Virus record (IMG/VR): IMGVR_UViG_3300043449_001455
Span: 1 to 55,433 of that record
DNA length: 55,433 nt
DNA from: a virus
Lineage: Duplodnaviria; Caudoviricetes
Reading direction: 5' to 3' (one strand)
Part shown: positions 20,650 through 43,712 of the stretch, one piece after another
How the letters are laid out: the number at the start of each line of letters is the position of its first letter
Position numbering within the stretch: position 1 is the stretch's first letter
The notes under the pieces: generated by a model
Database searches by the model: none
Seen by the model: only the letters and a program-made list of their open reading frames with translations
What the model was told of the DNA's origin: nothing
Translations under genes and position numbers: made by a program

Positions 20650-20725
20650 TGGTGAGCCGGGAGGGATTCGAACCCTCGGCCAGTTGATTAAAAGTCAACT
20701 GCTCTACCCCTGAGCTACCGGCTCC
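20650..20725 (-). tRNA. tRNA-Lys (UUU), 76 nt with encoded CCA
   Basis: GGAGCCG acceptor stem, D-arm AGCTCAGGGGTAGAGC, anticodon arm GTTGA-CTTTTAA-TCAAC, T-loop GTTCGAATC, 3' ACCA. Confidence 0.95.
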
Positions 20726-25614: not shown

Positions 25615-26802
25615 TCACTTTGAGACCAGCATTGCCCAGCCGGAGCCTGGGCCTTCGACCTCCCAGCGCCGCAACCAGTTCTTCCGGCTGTAGACCACAC
25701 CGGCGCCCTTGCTGTTGACGTAGTCGCCATTGACCAGGTCGCACTCGCCGTAGGGGTCGTTGTGGATGATGCTGGTGGTGTTGAACCCGATCGCCACGCT
25801 CCAGTGCCCGCCGCCGCTGGGGGCCGCTGCTGGGCCCTTGTGCAGCCAGCCCACACCAACGGGCCGGCCGGCGCGCAGCTCGCGCTCCAGCATTGCAACG
25901 GTGCAGCTCTGGATGAACTGCGGCTTCAAGCCCAGTGCCTGCAGAGTCTTGATCTGCGCCGTGGGCTCGGTGGTGTCGCCGTACTGGGCGCGGATGGCGT
26001 TGTATTCGTCGTCTGATTTCACCTTGCCGTGGAAGGCCGCGATCATGGCCATGCTCGAACTGAAGCACTCGCGATAGCCTTGGCCCGACTTGTTGTCGCG
26101 CTGGCTGAAGTAGGGGACGGCCAGCTGGATCGCATCGAACGTCTCAAGGCCGGGCATTTCGGGCATGTCCTTGAGCCAGAGATCACCTTCAGCCTTGCGC
26201 CGCCGCTTCAGGCCGGCCTCCACCGATGAACCCGGATTGCGGTAGAGCATCATGGCGCCGGGTACGTCCTTCCAGCGCTTCTCGCGCAGCGCCTTGCTGA
26301 TGGTGGCAAAGCCCTCGGTGCCATAGAAGCCGGAGCCGAGGTTGTACGCGAAGCTGATCAGCGCCGACTTCTGGTTATCGCCGAGCTCCTTCCAGGCCGG
26401 GATGGTCTGTGCGAGTTTCTGACAGATGCGGTCCATCTCAAGCCGCAACAGCATGTCGGCTTCGATGGCGTTGATCTTGTCGCCCTGCTTCACCGGCCGG
26501 CCATCGCCGTAGCGGGTGGTGCCGTAGCCGATCGTGGCGACCTTCCAGCCATGCAGTGGGTCTGCGTATGCCTCAAGGTGGCAGCCCTCGAACTCCTTGA
26601 TCAGCGCCAGCCCGGCCGACAGATCAGCTTGCTTGCCGTCCTGGCTCCAAGTGTTGAACCACGGCCGATCACGCCGCATGGCGTCCTCGTAGCCGTTCTC
26701 GCGCAGATCGGCCTCCAGCTCGGCGATGGCGGCCAGCTGGTGGGGCAGGCCGCGGTAGAAGCGGAACAGCTGCTCAAGGGTGATCGGTGCGGTGTTGCTC
26801 AA
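25615..26802 (-). CDS. Modular endolysin: GH24 lysozyme plus C39-like peptidase
   Basis: IKEFEG..AYADP...TIGYG...GLKRRR; VPYFSQRDN...ECFSSS...GGGHWS...NDPYG; TTG start. Confidence 0.9.
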   Translation of the reverse strand: MSNTAPITLEQLFRFYRGLPHQLAAIAELEADLRENGYEDAMRRDRPWFNTWSQDGKQADLSAGLALIKEFEGCHLEAYADPLHGWKVATIGYGTTRYGDGRPVKQGDKINAIEADMLLRLEMDRICQKLAQTIPAWKELGDNQKSALISFAYNLGSGFYGTEGFATISKALREKRWKDVPGAMMLYRNPGSSVEAGLKRRRKAEGDLWLKDMPEMPGLETFDAIQLAVPYFSQRDNKSGQGYRECFSSSMAMIAAFHGKVKSDDEYNAIRAQYGDTTEPTAQIKTLQALGLKPQFIQSCTVAMLERELRAGRPVGVGWLHKGPAAAPSGGGHWSVAIGFNTTSIIHNDPYGECDLVNGDYVNSKGAGVVYSRKNWLRRWEVEGPGSGWAMLVSK

Positions 26803-26981
26803 TCTCGCCTCCAGGGGGCTTTGATTTCCATGGCGCCACCAAGCAGCCGGCTGTCGCCGGTCTGCAGGTCAGGGTCGATCGGGTGATGCTCGATCACCGG
26901 AGCGGGAGTGCTTGGTGGCTGAGTGGCGTGCCAGTCCTCAATGGCGCGATCGAGCCGCGGCCCGATCGTCAGCGTTTTGGG
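26799..26981 (-). other. Predicted -1 frameshift signal and 58-aa extension of the holin-like protein
   Basis: In-phase C CCA AAA (26981-26975), 6-nt spacer, 9-bp hairpin (26968-26947); -1 frame is open to TGA at 26799-26801. Confidence 0.7.
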
Positions 26982-27106
26982 AAAGCGAGCCGCAGGAACT
27001 GCAGGACCAGCTGGATGATGCTGTTGGCGCGCAGAGGGCTGAGTGCAATTGCCTCAGACAGCGCAGCGATGGCGATCGCGACGATTGCAGCGGTAGTGGG
27101 GTCCAT
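26969..27106 (-). CDS. Holin-like small membrane protein (45 aa; below ORF-track cutoff)
   Basis: MDPTTAAIVAIAIAALSEAIALSPLRANSIIQLVLQFLRLAFPKR, upstream of the endolysin. Confidence 0.75.
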   Translation of the reverse strand: MDPTTAAIVAIAIAALSEAIALSPLRANSIIQLVLQFLRLAFPKR

Positions 27107-27134
27107 GCCTAAGCCCATGGTGTGTTCTCCAAGA

Positions 27135-27404
27135 TTAGCCCTGCTTGCTGATCACAGCCGCGGTGGGTCGAAGATTTAGCTGAAAGTGCTGTCCGACGAA
27201 CGAAGCGATGGGCGGCAAAACAAGGCTGGCGATCACTGCGGCCAGCACCACCTGACCCATGCGGGTTTCCAGTGTGCCGATGCGTTTGAAAATGTCCTTC
27301 TTGTCGTCGTCGTCCTTTTCGGTACGAAGGATCAGGGCAGACATCATGCCCTTGAGCTCACCGAGCTCTCGGTAGATGTCATTGTGCGACACCTGCGGCT
27401 CCAT
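27135..27404 (-). CDS. XhlA-like coiled-coil plus TM lysis-module protein
   Basis: IYRELGELKG...RIGTLETR then a hydrophobic helix. Confidence 0.65.
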   Translation of the reverse strand: MEPQVSHNDIYRELGELKGMMSALILRTEKDDDDKKDIFKRIGTLETRMGQVVLAAVIASLVLPPIASFVGQHFQLNLRPTAAVISKQG

Positions 27405-40300: not shown

Positions 40301-42105
40301 TTCAGGCCGACAGTGCCTTGCTCAAGATCCTTCTGGAGCTGGGGCAGGGTGCGTCCGGTGGCCTCGGCGAATGCTGTGACAGCGCCAGGCAAGCGCTCGC
40401 CCAACTGGCCCTGCAGCTCTTCTGCCGAGACCTTGCCCTTCGAGAAGATCTGCGCCATAGCGGTCAGGGCGCCCTGCACCTGCTCGGCGCCGCCACCGGT
40501 GGCCTTAATGGCCGTGGTGATGTTGCGGAACACCAGCTCGGCGTCGTTGACCTTGCCGCCAGCACCGATGACTGCAGCGCTCAGCTGCGTCATGCTTTGC
40601 GTGGTCTCGCCGATCGGCACGTTGAACTGGTTGGAGATGCTCTGTGCCGCCTGCAGTGCCCGCTGGTATTCAGCTGCGCTGCCGGCAACGCCTTCAAGGG
40701 CGATGCGCTGCTTCTCAAGCTGCGCGGCGTAGTCAGCAAAGCCGCCCAGCGCCTGACGGCCCATGCCGCCATAGGCGCCCACGGATCCGCCGAGGAATGC
40801 CCCCGTGGCAAAGCCGGCGGGGCCGCCAACTGCAGCGCCAATCAGGGATCCGCCCAAGCTGCCGAGGAAGCCCTCGGGCCCGCCGAAGATGCCCGACGCA
40901 GCGAGCGCACCAGCGCCTTGCCCGATTTGCGCAGCGCCGCCGCGATTGCCGCCCTGTCGCCGCCCGATCTGACTGTCGATCGTGCTGACCGCCTTGCGAG
41001 CCTCGCGCTCGATCTGCGCGTATTCCTTGTCGAGCGGGCTGATCGTGGCGCGGAGCTGCTCCCATGCCGCACGCTGCTGCTGCAGGCTGCTCACGCTGCC
41101 ATCAGACGCCATCGATGTCCGGCGGATGCTTTGAGCTACCTCTTCGTAGCTGCGCCCCATGAGCTGCAGCTGGTTGGCTGCAATCTGGTTGCTGATGCCG
41201 CCAATGCTGCGGAAAAGGGCGCTGGGCTCCGGCGGACCGATCGGCGCGTCGTAAAGCGGGCCGGGCTGGCGAGCCTGGTTGCGGGCGATCGATTTCTGGA
41301 CCGCGATTCGGTCTTCAAGGCCGCTGGAGAATGCCAGGAACCCGCTGCCGGTATTGCGGCTCTGCTCAAGGCGGCGACGAGCGGCCTCAACTGCAGGGTT
41401 TGAGAATTCTTGATTCAGCCGCCGCTGGACGTTGGCGATTTCACGCGACACCCGGATCCAGTCGGTGCCGCCGCGGCTAAGGTTGACGAACTCGGCGTTC
41501 AGTTCGCTCAGGCGCTGGTTGAGGCCTGCTGTGGTGTTCGGCAGCTCGGGCAATGCTGCCCCACCCTTGCCGCCTTGCGCGTAAGCCGCTGCACCGGCGA
41601 TCACATTCTGCCGGCCAAGCGCAGCGTTAAACGGGATCTGGCGACGCTGGATCTCGGTCAGAGCGTCGGTGTACTGGCGGGAATAGACGCTGAGTTCTTG
41701 CAGTCCGCGCTTGAGCGCACCGATCTGCTTCTCGAATGTACTCGGCTTTGATCCAACAATCTGGCTTTTTAGCTGCGCATCAGTGAATTGCTTTACGCCA
41801 CTCGCCGCTTCTTGATACGCGCCACCAAGGGCTTTTACGTCTTTACCAAGCTGCCTATAGACAGCGCCGCCGATTGATGCCTGCGCTTGCAGCGCTTTTA
41901 GGGCATCAACCTGGCCCTTGATAACCTGCTGGCTTCTGGCGCCAGCTTCGCCGAATGCCAGGATCTGTTTTCTGGCTTTTTCCAGCTCGGCATCAGCCGG
42001 CCCGATCGCCTGCTGCAGCCCCTTAAACGCACCCTTGAGCCTGTCGAAGCCCTCTAGGCCTTCGATCTGGGCGAGAATCTTTACCCTTGCGACCGACTCA
42101 GCCAT
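37357..42105 (-). CDS. Tape measure protein
   Basis: 1582 aa; QIFSKGKVSAEELQGQLGERLPG domain; FANGG...GERGPEA C-terminus. Confidence 0.93.
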   Translation of the reverse strand: MAESVARVKILAQIEGLEGFDRLKGAFKGLQQAIGPADAELEKARKQILAFGEAGARSQQVIKGQVDALKALQAQASIGGAVYRQLGKDVKALGGAYQEAASGVKQFTDAQLKSQIVGSKPSTFEKQIGALKRGLQELSVYSRQYTDALTEIQRRQIPFNAALGRQNVIAGAAAYAQGGKGGAALPELPNTTAGLNQRLSELNAEFVNLSRGGTDWIRVSREIANVQRRLNQEFSNPAVEAARRRLEQSRNTGSGFLAFSSGLEDRIAVQKSIARNQARQPGPLYDAPIGPPEPSALFRSIGGISNQIAANQLQLMGRSYEEVAQSIRRTSMASDGSVSSLQQQRAAWEQLRATISPLDKEYAQIEREARKAVSTIDSQIGRRQGGNRGGAAQIGQGAGALAASGIFGGPEGFLGSLGGSLIGAAVGGPAGFATGAFLGGSVGAYGGMGRQALGGFADYAAQLEKQRIALEGVAGSAAEYQRALQAAQSISNQFNVPIGETTQSMTQLSAAVIGAGGKVNDAELVFRNITTAIKATGGGAEQVQGALTAMAQIFSKGKVSAEELQGQLGERLPGAVTAFAEATGRTLPQLQKDLEQGTVGLNDVMKFVISLGDRYTETAKKIATSDADAGQRFQKTLADFRAAIGKELVPIGAELQNAFSDFLKSITPGVIEAAKGLAGAIKAIVENAGAIANLVKFAAQMGAISLAIKAFIALRPAVSAMFAIIQLGSTQTAIAAAMATPKVVALGAALRSLTVLGIITVGVNVIVKGLDQVRRVREELKSLREYNPNQTFAGATRETVQGAVGQARTDLSKFRDELKSLNAGSWKTMIPGATLFGAGPGDYQAQKKLLETRIARAQKTIDSLDPLKFPTELEVQRDQLKRLQQELTKFDDPAGKEGGADKAAEKAREDAERLAAEQQRLDEATARAQVEQARTVFNNQIELVKRRYDYEDERMRLQADIRAGALEGERAEVRRAANEFSARIDAIRRQLRETTLGVAVAERTAQFNAQMEAVTSQGLGSASGSGGGSVTGRYIQGGIGPRGANQYGPHFDIKRSDGGYYARNALDAYVQVNGRPLSSGVTVPGGEYGAPRSYGGHAGRDYAFGAGAALTLAGGAKWMGSTPGSFGDAAAFMTPDGKVYKIIHGKFEGGATNSAPTGVAAQSRRNVAAQGKLGSANAEVQQANALLDMSADQSKFLISREAIRYAQDQTQGLRNEARAMEDTNALLRERVKLEQEGMRPELIEARMNIEKIEMRRRDREAELNNLISENKDDPQKAAAYTLELELMNSALDRQVAAENARAQALTNSGVALANYIGQMKLQLAELTNIENYIISMAQTIESSLGTAIGSAVSNLVTGAQSIKQTLSDMFKSIGDAFIKMAADIIAKQLIIVALNSIARVFGGGGGGGLGGVSTAGVPSYALLSGGGFASGFSFANGGVMATGGPVPLNRYATGGVAKAPQLAMFGERGPEAYVPLPDGRSIPVKMKQRDDALNRYRPIGANGTVTEDGKMASAAAGDPGSAGGGPIDVRYTVERINNVEYVTADQFQQGMRQAALEGARQGERQTLRRLQQSPSTRRKVGV

Positions 42106-42442
42106 CTGACTTGTTCAGCTCCTGGAGGGCGGTCGATTCCATGACCTGGATTCCCTCAAGCATGGCCTTCGGGTCCTCTACCGAGTATAGGTCGCACAGC
42201 TTGAAGAGCACCTCGTACTTCAAGCCTGTGTAGCCACCCATCACAACGCTCCACTGGGTCTGCATCCGCAGAAACATCATGACAATGTCCCAGTTTTCGT
42301 CCCAGACCTCAAAATGCTCTTCCTCTGCCTCCTCGGAGACTGCAGATGGAGCAAGGCCGAAGAGACGAGCGTCTTCCTCGGCCTTGTCAGTGCTGGGGGA
42401 GCCGCCCGTGGCCCAGTACCGAGCGGCTTCCTTCAGTTTTTT
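42098..42442 (-). CDS. Tail assembly chaperone GT extension (DUF1799-like), via -1 frameshift
   Basis: Slippery A AAA AAC (42442-42436); -1 frame reads LKEAARYW...VWDENW...TQW...GLKYE. Confidence 0.85.
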   Translation of the reverse strand, partial: KKLKEAARYWATGGSPSTDKAEEDARLFGLAPSAVSEEAEEEHFEVWDENWDIVMMFLRMQTQWSVVMGGYTGLKYEVLFKLCDLYSVEDPKAMLEGIQVMESTALQELNKSDG

Positions 42443-42759
42443 GCTTTGGCCCCTTCCAGCGTCTCAAGGTACGCTTTCACAATCCCCTTGGCGAAATAGG
42501 GATCGTCGAGCATGTCCTTGAGCGCTGCTTTGGTGAAGGGGATCTCCTTCCCTGCTTCGTCCTTGACGCCTTCCCAGTCCTGCAGGACTGCGTGAACCAG
42601 GTCGGCGTCACCCTTGTCGACCAGCTTGCTGAACTCGTCACGCCCAAGGCGCTTGAAAGTTGCGTCAAACGACTCACTTTCAAACGAGCCACCGTCGACG
42701 GGAAATTCAACGGTGACGGGCCACTTGAACGTGGACGATTTCTTGCGGACGAAAGCCAT
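42433..42759 (-). CDS. Tail assembly chaperone G
   Basis: WPVTVEFP.DGG...WEGVKDE.G..IPF...AKN; lies between tube and tape measure genes. Confidence 0.88.
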   Translation of the reverse strand: MAFVRKKSSTFKWPVTVEFPVDGGSFESESFDATFKRLGRDEFSKLVDKGDADLVHAVLQDWEGVKDEAGKEIPFTKAALKDMLDDPYFAKGIVKAYLETLEGAKAKN

Positions 42760-42779
42760 GCAGGGAGTGCTCCTAAGGA

Positions 42780-43712
42780 TCAGGTGAAGGCGAGGCTAAC
42801 CTCGTCGTTACCTGCGCTGGTGGGGATGGCCACGTAGGGCAGGTTCAGCATTTGGATGCCGTCGCTGTCACTATACGTGGGGCTGCCGATGTCGACCTTC
42901 TGGGCGGTGAAGGTGACGATGTTGCCGGCCGTGGTGCCGTGCTCGAACGTCAGGCTGCCGGTGGTGTTGCTGTTTGCGACCGTGAAGAAGTCCTTCGCCG
43001 CGATGGTCGGGGCCTCGATCACAGCCTCGCCGGAGGGGGCGCGGTTGGTGATGATCACCTGCTTGGTGCAGCCAATCAGCTCGCGGTAGACCACCTCGTT
43101 GGCGATGTCGAAGTTCACCGACATCAGGCAGCCGCTGTAGCTCAGCAGGCTGAAGTTCGAGGTGTTGCCTTCCTTGAAGATCAAGGGGGTGGCCTGAGCC
43201 GAGTAGGTCACCACCGGGGCCGCGGTGTCGGTCGGGGCGTTGTAGATGCCGGTCATCGTGAAGTCGATGGTCGGGATCTGGCCCAGCTCGCAGTTCATCG
43301 TGAATGAGCCGCGGCAGCCGGTGGCCTTGTGCAGCACGCCATCGTTGTTGAAGTAGATGGTGGCCGAGCTGAAGCTGGCGCTCACCGGCGCATAGGTCAC
43401 GCTCGTGCTCGCCACGATGGTCGCGCTCATGCCGCATGCCTTCAGCAGGGCGTCGTACTTGGGCGCAGTGCCGGCGGTGCCGGAGCCGGCCAGCTCCACC
43501 TGGAAGGTGATGCTGACGCGGGTGTTGCCGAGGAGCTGCTCGGAGTTGCCCAAGTAGGGGCGGATCAGGTCACGGGACACCTGATCGGATTCGATCGGAG
43601 TGATGTCCAAGTTGCGCACCAGGATCGCGTCGGTGCCTGCCGGCGTCGAATCTGTTGCGTAGGTGGATTCAGTCTTCGCCAGGATCAGGCGTTTGCGAGT
43701 CAGGAGCGGCAT
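42780..43712 (-). CDS. Major tail tube protein
   Basis: ILAKTESTY..D...ELAGSGTAGTAP...ACG...G..AGNIV. Confidence 0.88.
   Translation of the reverse strand: MPLLTRKRLILAKTESTYATDSTPAGTDAILVRNLDITPIESDQVSRDLIRPYLGNSEQLLGNTRVSITFQVELAGSGTAGTAPKYDALLKACGMSATIVASTSVTYAPVSASFSSATIYFNNDGVLHKATGCRGSFTMNCELGQIPTIDFTMTGIYNAPTDTAAPVVTYSAQATPLIFKEGNTSNFSLLSYSGCLMSVNFDIANEVVYRELIGCTKQVIITNRAPSGEAVIEAPTIAAKDFFTVANSNTTGSLTFEHGTTAGNIVTFTAQKVDIGSPTYSDSDGIQMLNLPYVAIPTSAGNDEVSLAFT

Follow-up and report, generated by a model that had tools for sequence, protein, structure and literature searches.

A predicted programmed -1 ribosomal frameshift in a small membrane-protein gene next to the endolysin gene of cyanophages

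How is a stretch of 167 nucleotides (nt) read that lies between two phage genes and contains no called gene? The question is raised by the record IMGVR_UViG_3300043449_001455 of the IMG/VR database (Duplodnaviria; Caudoviricetes), a complete virus record of 55,433 bases with direct terminal repeats. The whole of this stretch was analysed and is called the window below. On its minus strand, a short open reading frame (ORF) for a predicted small membrane protein ends 167 nt upstream of an endolysin gene, and a second ORF, in the -1 frame, bridges the gap. An earlier note on this DNA had proposed that some ribosomes change frame at the end of the short ORF and continue to the endolysin start. The comparison of related sequences described here agrees with that proposal: with a probability of roughly 85%, the short ORF ends in a programmed -1 ribosomal frameshift site, from which a short and a long form of one lysis-region membrane protein would result.

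The 3' end of the short ORF reads TTC CCA AAA CGC TGA. It contains the heptamer C CCA AAA, which is followed by the 6-nt spacer CGCTGA and by a hairpin of nine base pairs. These elements, together with the open -1 frame and the TTGA at which the last stop overlaps the endolysin start, had all been listed in the earlier note, and all are present in the sequence (Table 1). The -1 frame is open from 27053 to 26799. It adds 58 amino acids (aa) and has no ATG, GTG or TTG upstream of the site, as had been described; the first such codon is a GTG at 26897, 74 nt past the 0-frame stop. The predicted long product has 102 aa if translation begins at ATG 27106, the start assumed before, and 106 aa from ATG 27118. 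The ORF itself stands, but ATG 27118 is the better-placed start, with GGAGA 7 nt upstream, and the two products then have 49 and 106 aa rather than 45 and 102 aa.

Table 1. Positions of the features discussed, numbered along the 55,433-nt window
Feature	Position	Strand	Description
Endolysin, 395 aa	25615..26802	-	TTG start; N-terminal domain of about 60 aa, Phage_lysozyme, C39/C70-like peptidase
Endolysin residues 1-65	26608..26802	-	conserved N-terminal domain, including invariant Leu, Phe, Pro-His-Gln, Ala, Trp, Trp, Gly
-1 extension	26799..26975	-	58 codons and TGA (26801..26799, overlapping TTG 26802 as TTGA); D-W-H..Q-P and Q-T-G-D-S-x-L-L-G-G..P-W motifs
Hairpin	26947..26968	-	9 pairs (one G-U), 4-nt loop, 6 nt after heptamer; -14.1 kcal/mol alone
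Short ORF	26969..27118	-	ATG 27118 (49 aa) or ATG 27106 (45 aa); TGA stop 26971..26969
Slippery heptamer C CCA AAA	26975..26981	-	in phase X XXY YYZ; one codon before 0-frame stop
89-aa protein	27135..27404	-	from the ORF list; charged helix-rich N-terminal part and one C-terminal membrane helix; first of a pair of small membrane proteins before the endolysin
tRNA-Lys(UUU)	20650..20724	-	sole tRNA gene of the window; reads the A-site codon of the heptamer
Tail-assembly-chaperone -1 site, heptamer A AAA AAC	42442	-	ORFs 42433..42795 and 42098..42463

The proposed mechanism would work as follows. Most ribosomes would terminate at the UGA of the 45- or 49-codon ORF, and their product would be a membrane protein with one helix and a basic tail. 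Some would move back by one base on C CCA AAA while CCA is occupied by tRNA-Pro (P site) and AAA by tRNA-Lys (A site); in this phage they would probably be aided by the hairpin 6 nt downstream. Translation in the -1 frame would then continue for 58 codons, up to the UGA with which the UUG start of the endolysin overlaps. Two proteins with a common membrane anchor would be produced. Because the conserved C-terminal domain has no start codon of its own, it would be made whole in this clade only through the slip.

The frequency of such sites by chance can be judged from 487 six-frame ORFs of the window with at least 40 aa. Four of them carry a heptamer in phase (Y = A or T) within 15 nt of their end, and two of these also have a -1 frame that is open for at least 50 codons. 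One is the C CCA AAA site and the other the A AAA AAC expected in tail-assembly-chaperone genes. At the latter, a 120-codon ORF ends after the heptamer and the -1 frame stays open for 112 further codons up to the tape-measure gene, so that the site sits between the major tail and tape-measure genes.

Evidence for the frameshift is provided chiefly by related phages. A search of IMG/VR with the 58-aa extension found 212 relatives, from which 80 loci were kept. Both ORFs are present in 76 of these; three loci are cut at the 5' end, and in L076 the match to the short ORF was too weak (its contig, re-examined as L205, has a divergent anchor with G GGA AAG). Added to them were the window and the Synechococcus siphovirus S-CBS3, the closest cultured relative by DNA (73.7% over 560 nt, beginning inside the 'empty' 167-nt stretch). 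The second ORF is in the -1 frame in every one of the 78 rows, and this frame runs open past the 0-frame stop. Removal of identical sequences left 62 distinct cassettes, each consisting of the short ORF and its extension, whose predicted long products share 40-100% identity (median 58%).

A heptamer of the form X XXA AAR is found in all 62 cassettes: A AAA AAG in 37, C CCA AAG in 21 and C CCA AAA in 4. It ends 3 nt before the 0-frame stop in 61 cassettes and directly before it (0 nt) in the remaining one. The frame, the heptamer and its place, on which the predicted short and long forms depend, are thus kept down to 40% protein identity. The alignment of homologues that the earlier note had called for shows the heptamer and the -1 ORF to be conserved, and shows the hairpin to be conserved only in the subclade of the window.

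A wider set was assembled by three more scans, with distant members as queries, and by a scan of genome contigs. It comprises 150 loci, 104 of them distinct, that have a membrane-type 0-frame ORF stopping inside an open -1 frame; ten loci cut at the 5' end were left out. The heptamer is present in 95 of the 104, including six with G GGA AAG, and in all nine of nine further loci that the search pattern had missed and that were checked separately. According to the available part of one study of E. coli (PMC4066793), C CCA AAG, G GGA AAG and A AAA AAG are the most efficient -1 motifs in that bacterium, and the class V VVA AAR described there includes all four versions found in the cassettes.

Four loci (L084-L087) of this kind are on contigs of 3.8-45 kb that belong to metagenome-assembled 'bacterial' genomes, labelled Synechococcaceae, Prochlorococcaceae, Gammaproteobacteria and Hyphomonadaceae. 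Some of these are probably phage contigs binned with the wrong organism.

The codons at the site can be compared with those elsewhere in the same ORFs. In the 25 cassettes with a C CCA AAR heptamer, Phe is always TTC (102/213 elsewhere) and Pro is always CCA (145/621 elsewhere). In the 37 cassettes with AAA AAG, the preceding codon always has A in its third position, whether it stands for Gly, Ala, Arg or Pro; GGA occurs 17 times at this place, compared with 24 of 347 Gly codons elsewhere. The two main endings, Phe-Pro-Lys-x and x-Lys-Lys-x, differ in their residues yet both spell a slippery heptamer. Judged from this usage, codon choice is keeping the heptamer beyond what the amino acids need.

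The change of frame is also visible in the pattern of variability. Upstream of the site, mean variability at 0-frame positions 1/2/3 is 0.48/0.29/0.97, 0.57/0.35/1.09 and 0.45/0.19/1.05 in three subclades. Downstream of the heptamer, the maximum is at position 3 of the -1 frame, with values of 0.94, 1.34 and 1.09 in the three subclades, aligned without gaps. The alignment of the predicted long products is continuous across the site, and conserved residues appear from one or two codons after it.

An alignment of 34 extension sequences has 13 invariant columns (W, H, Q, P, P, Q, T, G, S, L, G, G and I). No relative of the extension was found in Pfam, PHROG or NCBIfam, its profile has no match in the PDB, and the ESM Atlas gave no usable match. 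A hidden Markov model (HMM) of the extension, searched against 1.84 billion representatives, matched 99 clusters, 40 of them at E 1e-10 or better. Some long matches were considered as in-frame fused forms; the longer ones that were fetched are no fusions but -1 frame gene calls whose 5' end was placed beyond the slippery site. Large multi-repeat proteins among the weak matches are spurious. In P0044 (218 aa), a single sequence seen at the protein level only and possibly an artefact, the C-terminal motif of the extension is fused in frame to Phage_lysozyme and replaces the usual N-terminal domain of the endolysin.

The alternative that survives best, although it is improbable, is that the extension is a separate downstream gene. 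It would be translated without any frameshift from a nearby or non-standard start codon, for instance the CTG overlapping the stop or the ACG or ATC that comes next, through re-initiation or coupling. Stop and next codon do overlap as in a classic coupled pair (CTGA in the window). The overlapping codon is CTG in 36 of the 62 cassettes and TTG or GTG in seven, and it is ATG in cluster P0001; an ATG lies 47 nt downstream in S-CBS3 and two relatives, and relatives with a lower content of guanine plus cytosine (GC) use an ATG of their own. Against this, the overlapping codon is CTA, TTA or GTA in the other 19 cassettes. An independent start at the CTG had been named in the earlier note as the finding that would speak against its proposal, and in these 19 the codon is a non-initiating one. 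There is no ATG, GTG or TTG at the stop or within 12 nt of it in 53 of the 62. The first such codon is at least a fifth of the way into the extension in 47 and more than halfway in 13, and L045 has none. Because starts are so scarce near the stop, re-initiation alone cannot explain the family. It would also leave unexplained why a heptamer is retained through codon choice, in four versions, one codon before the stop, and the coding signal of the -1 frame begins right at that heptamer.

Another way to join the two frames would be slippage of RNA polymerase on a run of A, giving mRNAs that are one base longer or shorter. A run of six A is present in 37 of the 62 sites. The run is no longer than three or four A in the remaining 25 (C CCA AAR) and at the sites with G GGA AAG (four in the window itself), and known cases of polymerase slippage use runs of about eight or more. 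What all versions have in common is the in-phase X XXA AAR pattern of a tandem slip, which is relevant only to the ribosome. This explanation is very improbable.

The -1 ORF could also be unexpressed, a decaying or chance frame in the 167-nt spacer, and the heptamer a by-product of the basic tail. Basic tails with Lys-Lys or Pro-Lys naturally yield A-rich codons, and the extension has no family or structure match that would give it a known role. Its invariant columns, the third-position variability in its own frame and the 99 HMM clusters show that it is conserved as a protein, and synonymous codons that would break the heptamer are never used, so that this account is even harder to sustain than the preceding one.

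Hardly credible, finally, is an error of sequencing or assembly that split one ordinary gene: homopolymer runs are error-prone on some platforms, and P0051 and P0056, rejected as true fusions, cross frames twice and look error-ridden, but the same arrangement recurs in more than 100 distinct contigs from many samples and in three isolate genomes, contigs of a second, independent study over this stretch differ by 22 and 27 substitutions with no insertion or deletion and an unchanged heptamer, and the short ORF has exactly 46 aa in 110 of the best-scoring 120 of the 4160 clusters found by a profile search with its protein.

The hairpin had been put forward as part of the site. It is present in the sequence of the window, where the minimum-energy and centroid folds of the 52-nt stretch both contain it, and it is kept in the subclade of the window. 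Among the ten distinct sequences of this subclade, 85.6% of the hairpin cells pair, compared with 17-56% when the partner is slid, and two pairs are changed on both sides in a compensatory manner. Of 500 shuffles, one attains the covariation score and 18 attain the percentage paired. Mean folding just after the site is -11.4 kcal/mol, compared with -8.6 kcal/mol further on, a general excess, beyond this subclade, that is weak and uncontrolled. Rfam has no match within 26700..27200. The hairpin is plausible as a local stimulator of the slip in this subclade; as a stimulator for the whole family it is ruled out, since the other clades have no shared structure.

Several observations weigh against a programmed frameshift, or against its generality. 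The 52-nt stretch has a z-score of only -1.5 relative to shuffles, 13 of 200 of which fold as well. Outside the subclade of the window no common structure follows the site, most z-scores being between -2 and +1.5. The C CCA AAA of the window is the rarer version, with 4 of 62 cassettes. Without a stimulator, the best heptamers give about 0.3% slippage in E. coli (available part of PMC4066793), so the long form could be very rare. The nine relatives among the 62 with TTG or GTG at or beside the stop, and the ATG of P0001, count on the same side, and re-initiation may contribute to expression in some phages.

The exceptions belong here as well. Nine of the 104 loci in the wider set have no heptamer: five lower-GC loci with their own ATG, three with a different anchor (L149, L150 and L180), and L213, which has no canonical one. 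The anchor protein of L149, L150 and L180 has about 68-72 aa and is followed by a relative of the extension in the -1 frame, in L149 without a nearby start. Only the A-site part of the heptamer (A AAG) is kept in these three, as UCA AAG, one codon and the stop; L180 alone has an in-phase A AAG GGC directly before the stop. A sister clade of lower GC (0.34-0.52) makes the domain as a stand-alone protein of about 95 aa from its own ATG. Its N-terminus is amphipathic rather than hydrophobic, and no endolysin adjoins it. Of the 47 distinct loci placed in that class, three are frameshift loci sorted there by mistake and two are fragments; the other 42 are of the stand-alone kind. Since the sister clade uses its own ATG, the domain does not need an anchor everywhere.

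The programmed frameshift can also be looked for in cultured phages. Three cyanophages, S-CBS3, KBS-S-2A and S-EIVl, have the site, and parts of their cassettes are unannotated or mis-annotated. In S-CBS3, gp21 ends GGA AAA AAG CTC TAG and gp22 lies in the -1 frame. The annotated start of gp22 is an ATG that is absent in L040, L043, L055 and L066, which keep the residues before it. In KBS-S-2A (L234, 1331..1713), gene 7 ends GCA AAA AAG AGC TGA, and the unannotated gap of 204 nt that follows is the -1 ORF. In S-EIVl (L235, 989..1395), an unannotated 46-aa ORF ends GGA AAG CGC TGA; the -1 ORF is annotated, 5'-shortened, as a 'hypothetical protein' from an internal GTG, and the gene after the cassette is on the other strand. 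S-LBS1 was rejected as a carrier, the small genes at the same place being unrelated.

What might the two products do? The predicted membrane anchor of the short protein is a single hydrophobic helix in which a Ser-Glu is invariant; an amphipathic helix and a basic end follow. In the window, the hydrophobic stretch covers residues 4-20 and the C-terminus is Pro-Lys-Arg. Among the best-scoring 120 of the 4160 clusters, 115 end in x-Lys-Lys-x, and all 120 are unnamed or called 'hypothetical protein'. The protein matches phrog_22542 ('unknown function') at E 3e-9. It has no match in Pfam or NCBIfam, and belongs to none of the described holin families of these two databases and PHROG. Holin-like traits are present: it is small, has at least one membrane helix and a charged, basic C-terminus, and its gene is near that of the endolysin. 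The dual-start motif of lambda was looked for and is absent in the window: what separates ATG 27118 from ATG 27106 is Gly-Leu-Gly, which includes neither Lys nor Arg. As a candidate for the holin, the 89-aa neighbour is just as good, and so are its counterparts in related phages.

The order of genes on the minus strand of the window runs from tail fibre genes through a tail-fibre chaperone-like gene (Phage_tail_APC) to the 89-aa protein, the short ORF, the 167-nt stretch without a called gene and the endolysin. No promoter-like or terminator-like site was detected between these genes on this strand. The 89-aa protein has its hydrophobic stretch at residues 48-66 and no family in Pfam, PHROG or NCBIfam. 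In about 48 of the 62 related cassettes, the gene before the short ORF encodes a helix-rich protein of about 80-130 aa with one membrane helix; these proteins fall into three types that look unrelated. In the type of S-CBS3 the helix is N-terminal and the end is often Pro-Pro-Ser-Cys, which recalls inner-membrane spanin parts. In L149 and L150, a relative of the 89-aa protein is placed after the extension instead. With regard to spanins, the extension of the window has no Cys, and the anchor is N-terminal and has no lipobox. The tRNA-Lys(UUU) gene was considered as a conserved companion of the cassette and rejected: of five related complete genomes that contain the cassette, one alone has any tRNA match, and none was shown to have a clear tRNA-Lys.

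The endolysin matches Pfam families PF00959 (7e-23), PF12385 (2e-8) and PF13529 (4e-7) as well as endolysin families of PHROG, and has its own GGAGG 5 nt before the start. Its N-terminal domain has no Pfam match and no PDB match by sequence. This domain is conserved in 43 distinct endolysins of related cassettes, while the catalytic domains vary: lysozyme and a C39-like domain in the window, lysozyme and M15 in L037 and L170, lysozyme alone in L010, and a C39-like domain alone in L215. In S-CBS3, visual inspection rather than a domain search suggests an M15-like C-terminal part.

A gene for a cell-wall hydrolase comes next in most cassettes, and its start overlaps the end of the extension. The N-terminus of the endolysin adjoins the extension, and the first candidate start is 1-38 nt before the stop in at least 53 of the 62. 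In L020, L024, L044 and L054, small ORFs follow the extension instead of a hydrolase. Two apparent connections between the proteins were rejected. The Gly-Gly motif of the extension was considered as a cleavage site for the C39-like domain, but it is kept in many cassettes whose endolysins lack that domain. That the tail of the extension varies together with the endolysin type is a trivial consequence of the overlap of the two genes.

As read from the sequence by the positive-inside rule, the anchor would be oriented N-out and C-in, which would place the extension in the cytoplasm. The long form might tentatively be regarded as a membrane-anchored partner or regulator of the endolysin, or as an antiholin-like form of the short protein, with the ratio fixed by the efficiency of the slip. 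A holin/antiholin-like ratio, and a possible metering of endolysin translation by coupling, had been suggested in the earlier note; for the second, the GGAGG that the endolysin has of its own is to be considered. In a more detailed scheme, which is unlikely in full, slippage would fix the ratio on which a lysis switch depends in many cyanophages of a large group. Holes would be made by the short form, the rare long form would dock the N-terminal domain of the endolysin with its cytoplasmic domain or block the holes, and the ribosomes that translate the long form would be delivered to the weak start of the endolysin.

Conserved programmed frameshifts in tailed phages are, to our knowledge, known almost only from tail-chaperone genes. 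The frameshift predicted here is a new variant of this known mechanism, applied to a lysis-region gene, and it can be compared with several systems as they are described in the available parts of the papers cited.

The tail chaperones G/GT of lambda and E/E+E' of P2 (Xu, Hendrix and Duda 2004, cited through PMC3091744) likewise rely for a -1 slip on a conserved heptamer, in phase and close to where a short first ORF ends. In G/GT, as predicted for the cassette, a short and a C-terminally extended protein share their N-terminus and are made in a fixed ratio, often with no conserved downstream structure (PMC3091744). The cassette is different in that it belongs to another gene family and encodes a lysis-region membrane protein, its 0-frame stop comes one codon after the heptamer, and its extension ends on the endolysin start.

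The sites of dnaX and IS911/IS3 of E. coli share the heptamers A AAA AAG, C CCA AAG and G GGA AAG and the dependence on re-pairing of tRNA-Lys, and the window hairpin stands at the 6-nt distance that is usual there (PMC4066793). However, the slip ends the protein early in dnaX and fuses two transposase parts in the insertion sequences. Strong stimulators (an upstream Shine-Dalgarno-like element, a hairpin or a pseudoknot) have been defined for those sites (PMC4066793), whereas the cassette has a candidate stimulator in one subclade only.

Among lysis genes, lambda S105/S107 also provides two forms of a small lysis-region membrane protein from one gene, in a ratio set in translation. The forms of lambda S differ by two N-terminal residues through a second start (PMC3091744), those predicted for the cassette by at least 58 C-terminal residues through recoding. 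Ms6 Gp1 is a chaperone-like protein that is encoded just before lysA and binds the N-terminal domain of the endolysin (PMC3111421). It is the nearest described analogue, and the likeness of the extension to it is one of position: the extension too belongs to a small protein encoded right before an endolysin with a conserved N-terminal domain of about 60 aa. Unlike Ms6 Gp1, the extension would be attached to a membrane anchor through the frameshift. In MS2, a change of frame in the upstream gene also controls the lysis function (Kastelein et al. 1982, cited through PMC10885494). There, ribosomes that change frame, rarely and without a programmed signal, terminate early and re-initiate at the start of the lysis gene, with no fusion protein or conserved heptamer (PMC10885494).

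In the full-text literature, with subscription journals and supplements outside its scope, no earlier report was found of a frameshift in a holin, antiholin or spanin gene, or in these cyanophages. A genome announcement for Streptomyces phages mentions predicted frameshifts 'near predicted holins' without detail (PMC9671017), and the PRFect paper counts 'lysins' among the genes with known frameshifts (PMC10885494). Holins and endolysins are not mentioned in the available part of a 2016 review of recoding, nor in a 2025 preprint on frameshifting.

If the frameshift is true, it would be a second widespread class of conserved frameshifts in phages, located in the lysis region and represented by more than 100 distinct cyanophage cassettes. 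It would be a new route to two forms of a lysis-region protein, by C-terminal recoding instead of dual starts. The extension also defines a new protein domain (Q-T-G-x-S..L-G-G..P-W) that travels with endolysins, and the current annotation of three cultured phages misses or truncates genes of the cassette. Each of S-CBS3, KBS-S-2A and S-EIVl has a named Synechococcus strain as its host of isolation, so the claim is open to test, provided that these pairs still exist as cultures. If the idea of a lysis switch is also true, the efficiency of the slip would set both the timing of lysis and the dose of endolysin, and it could respond to the state of tRNA-Lys, of which the phage encodes a copy, tRNA-Lys(UUU). 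The timing and execution of cyanophage lysis, which are barely understood, bear on the release of carbon in lakes and the ocean.

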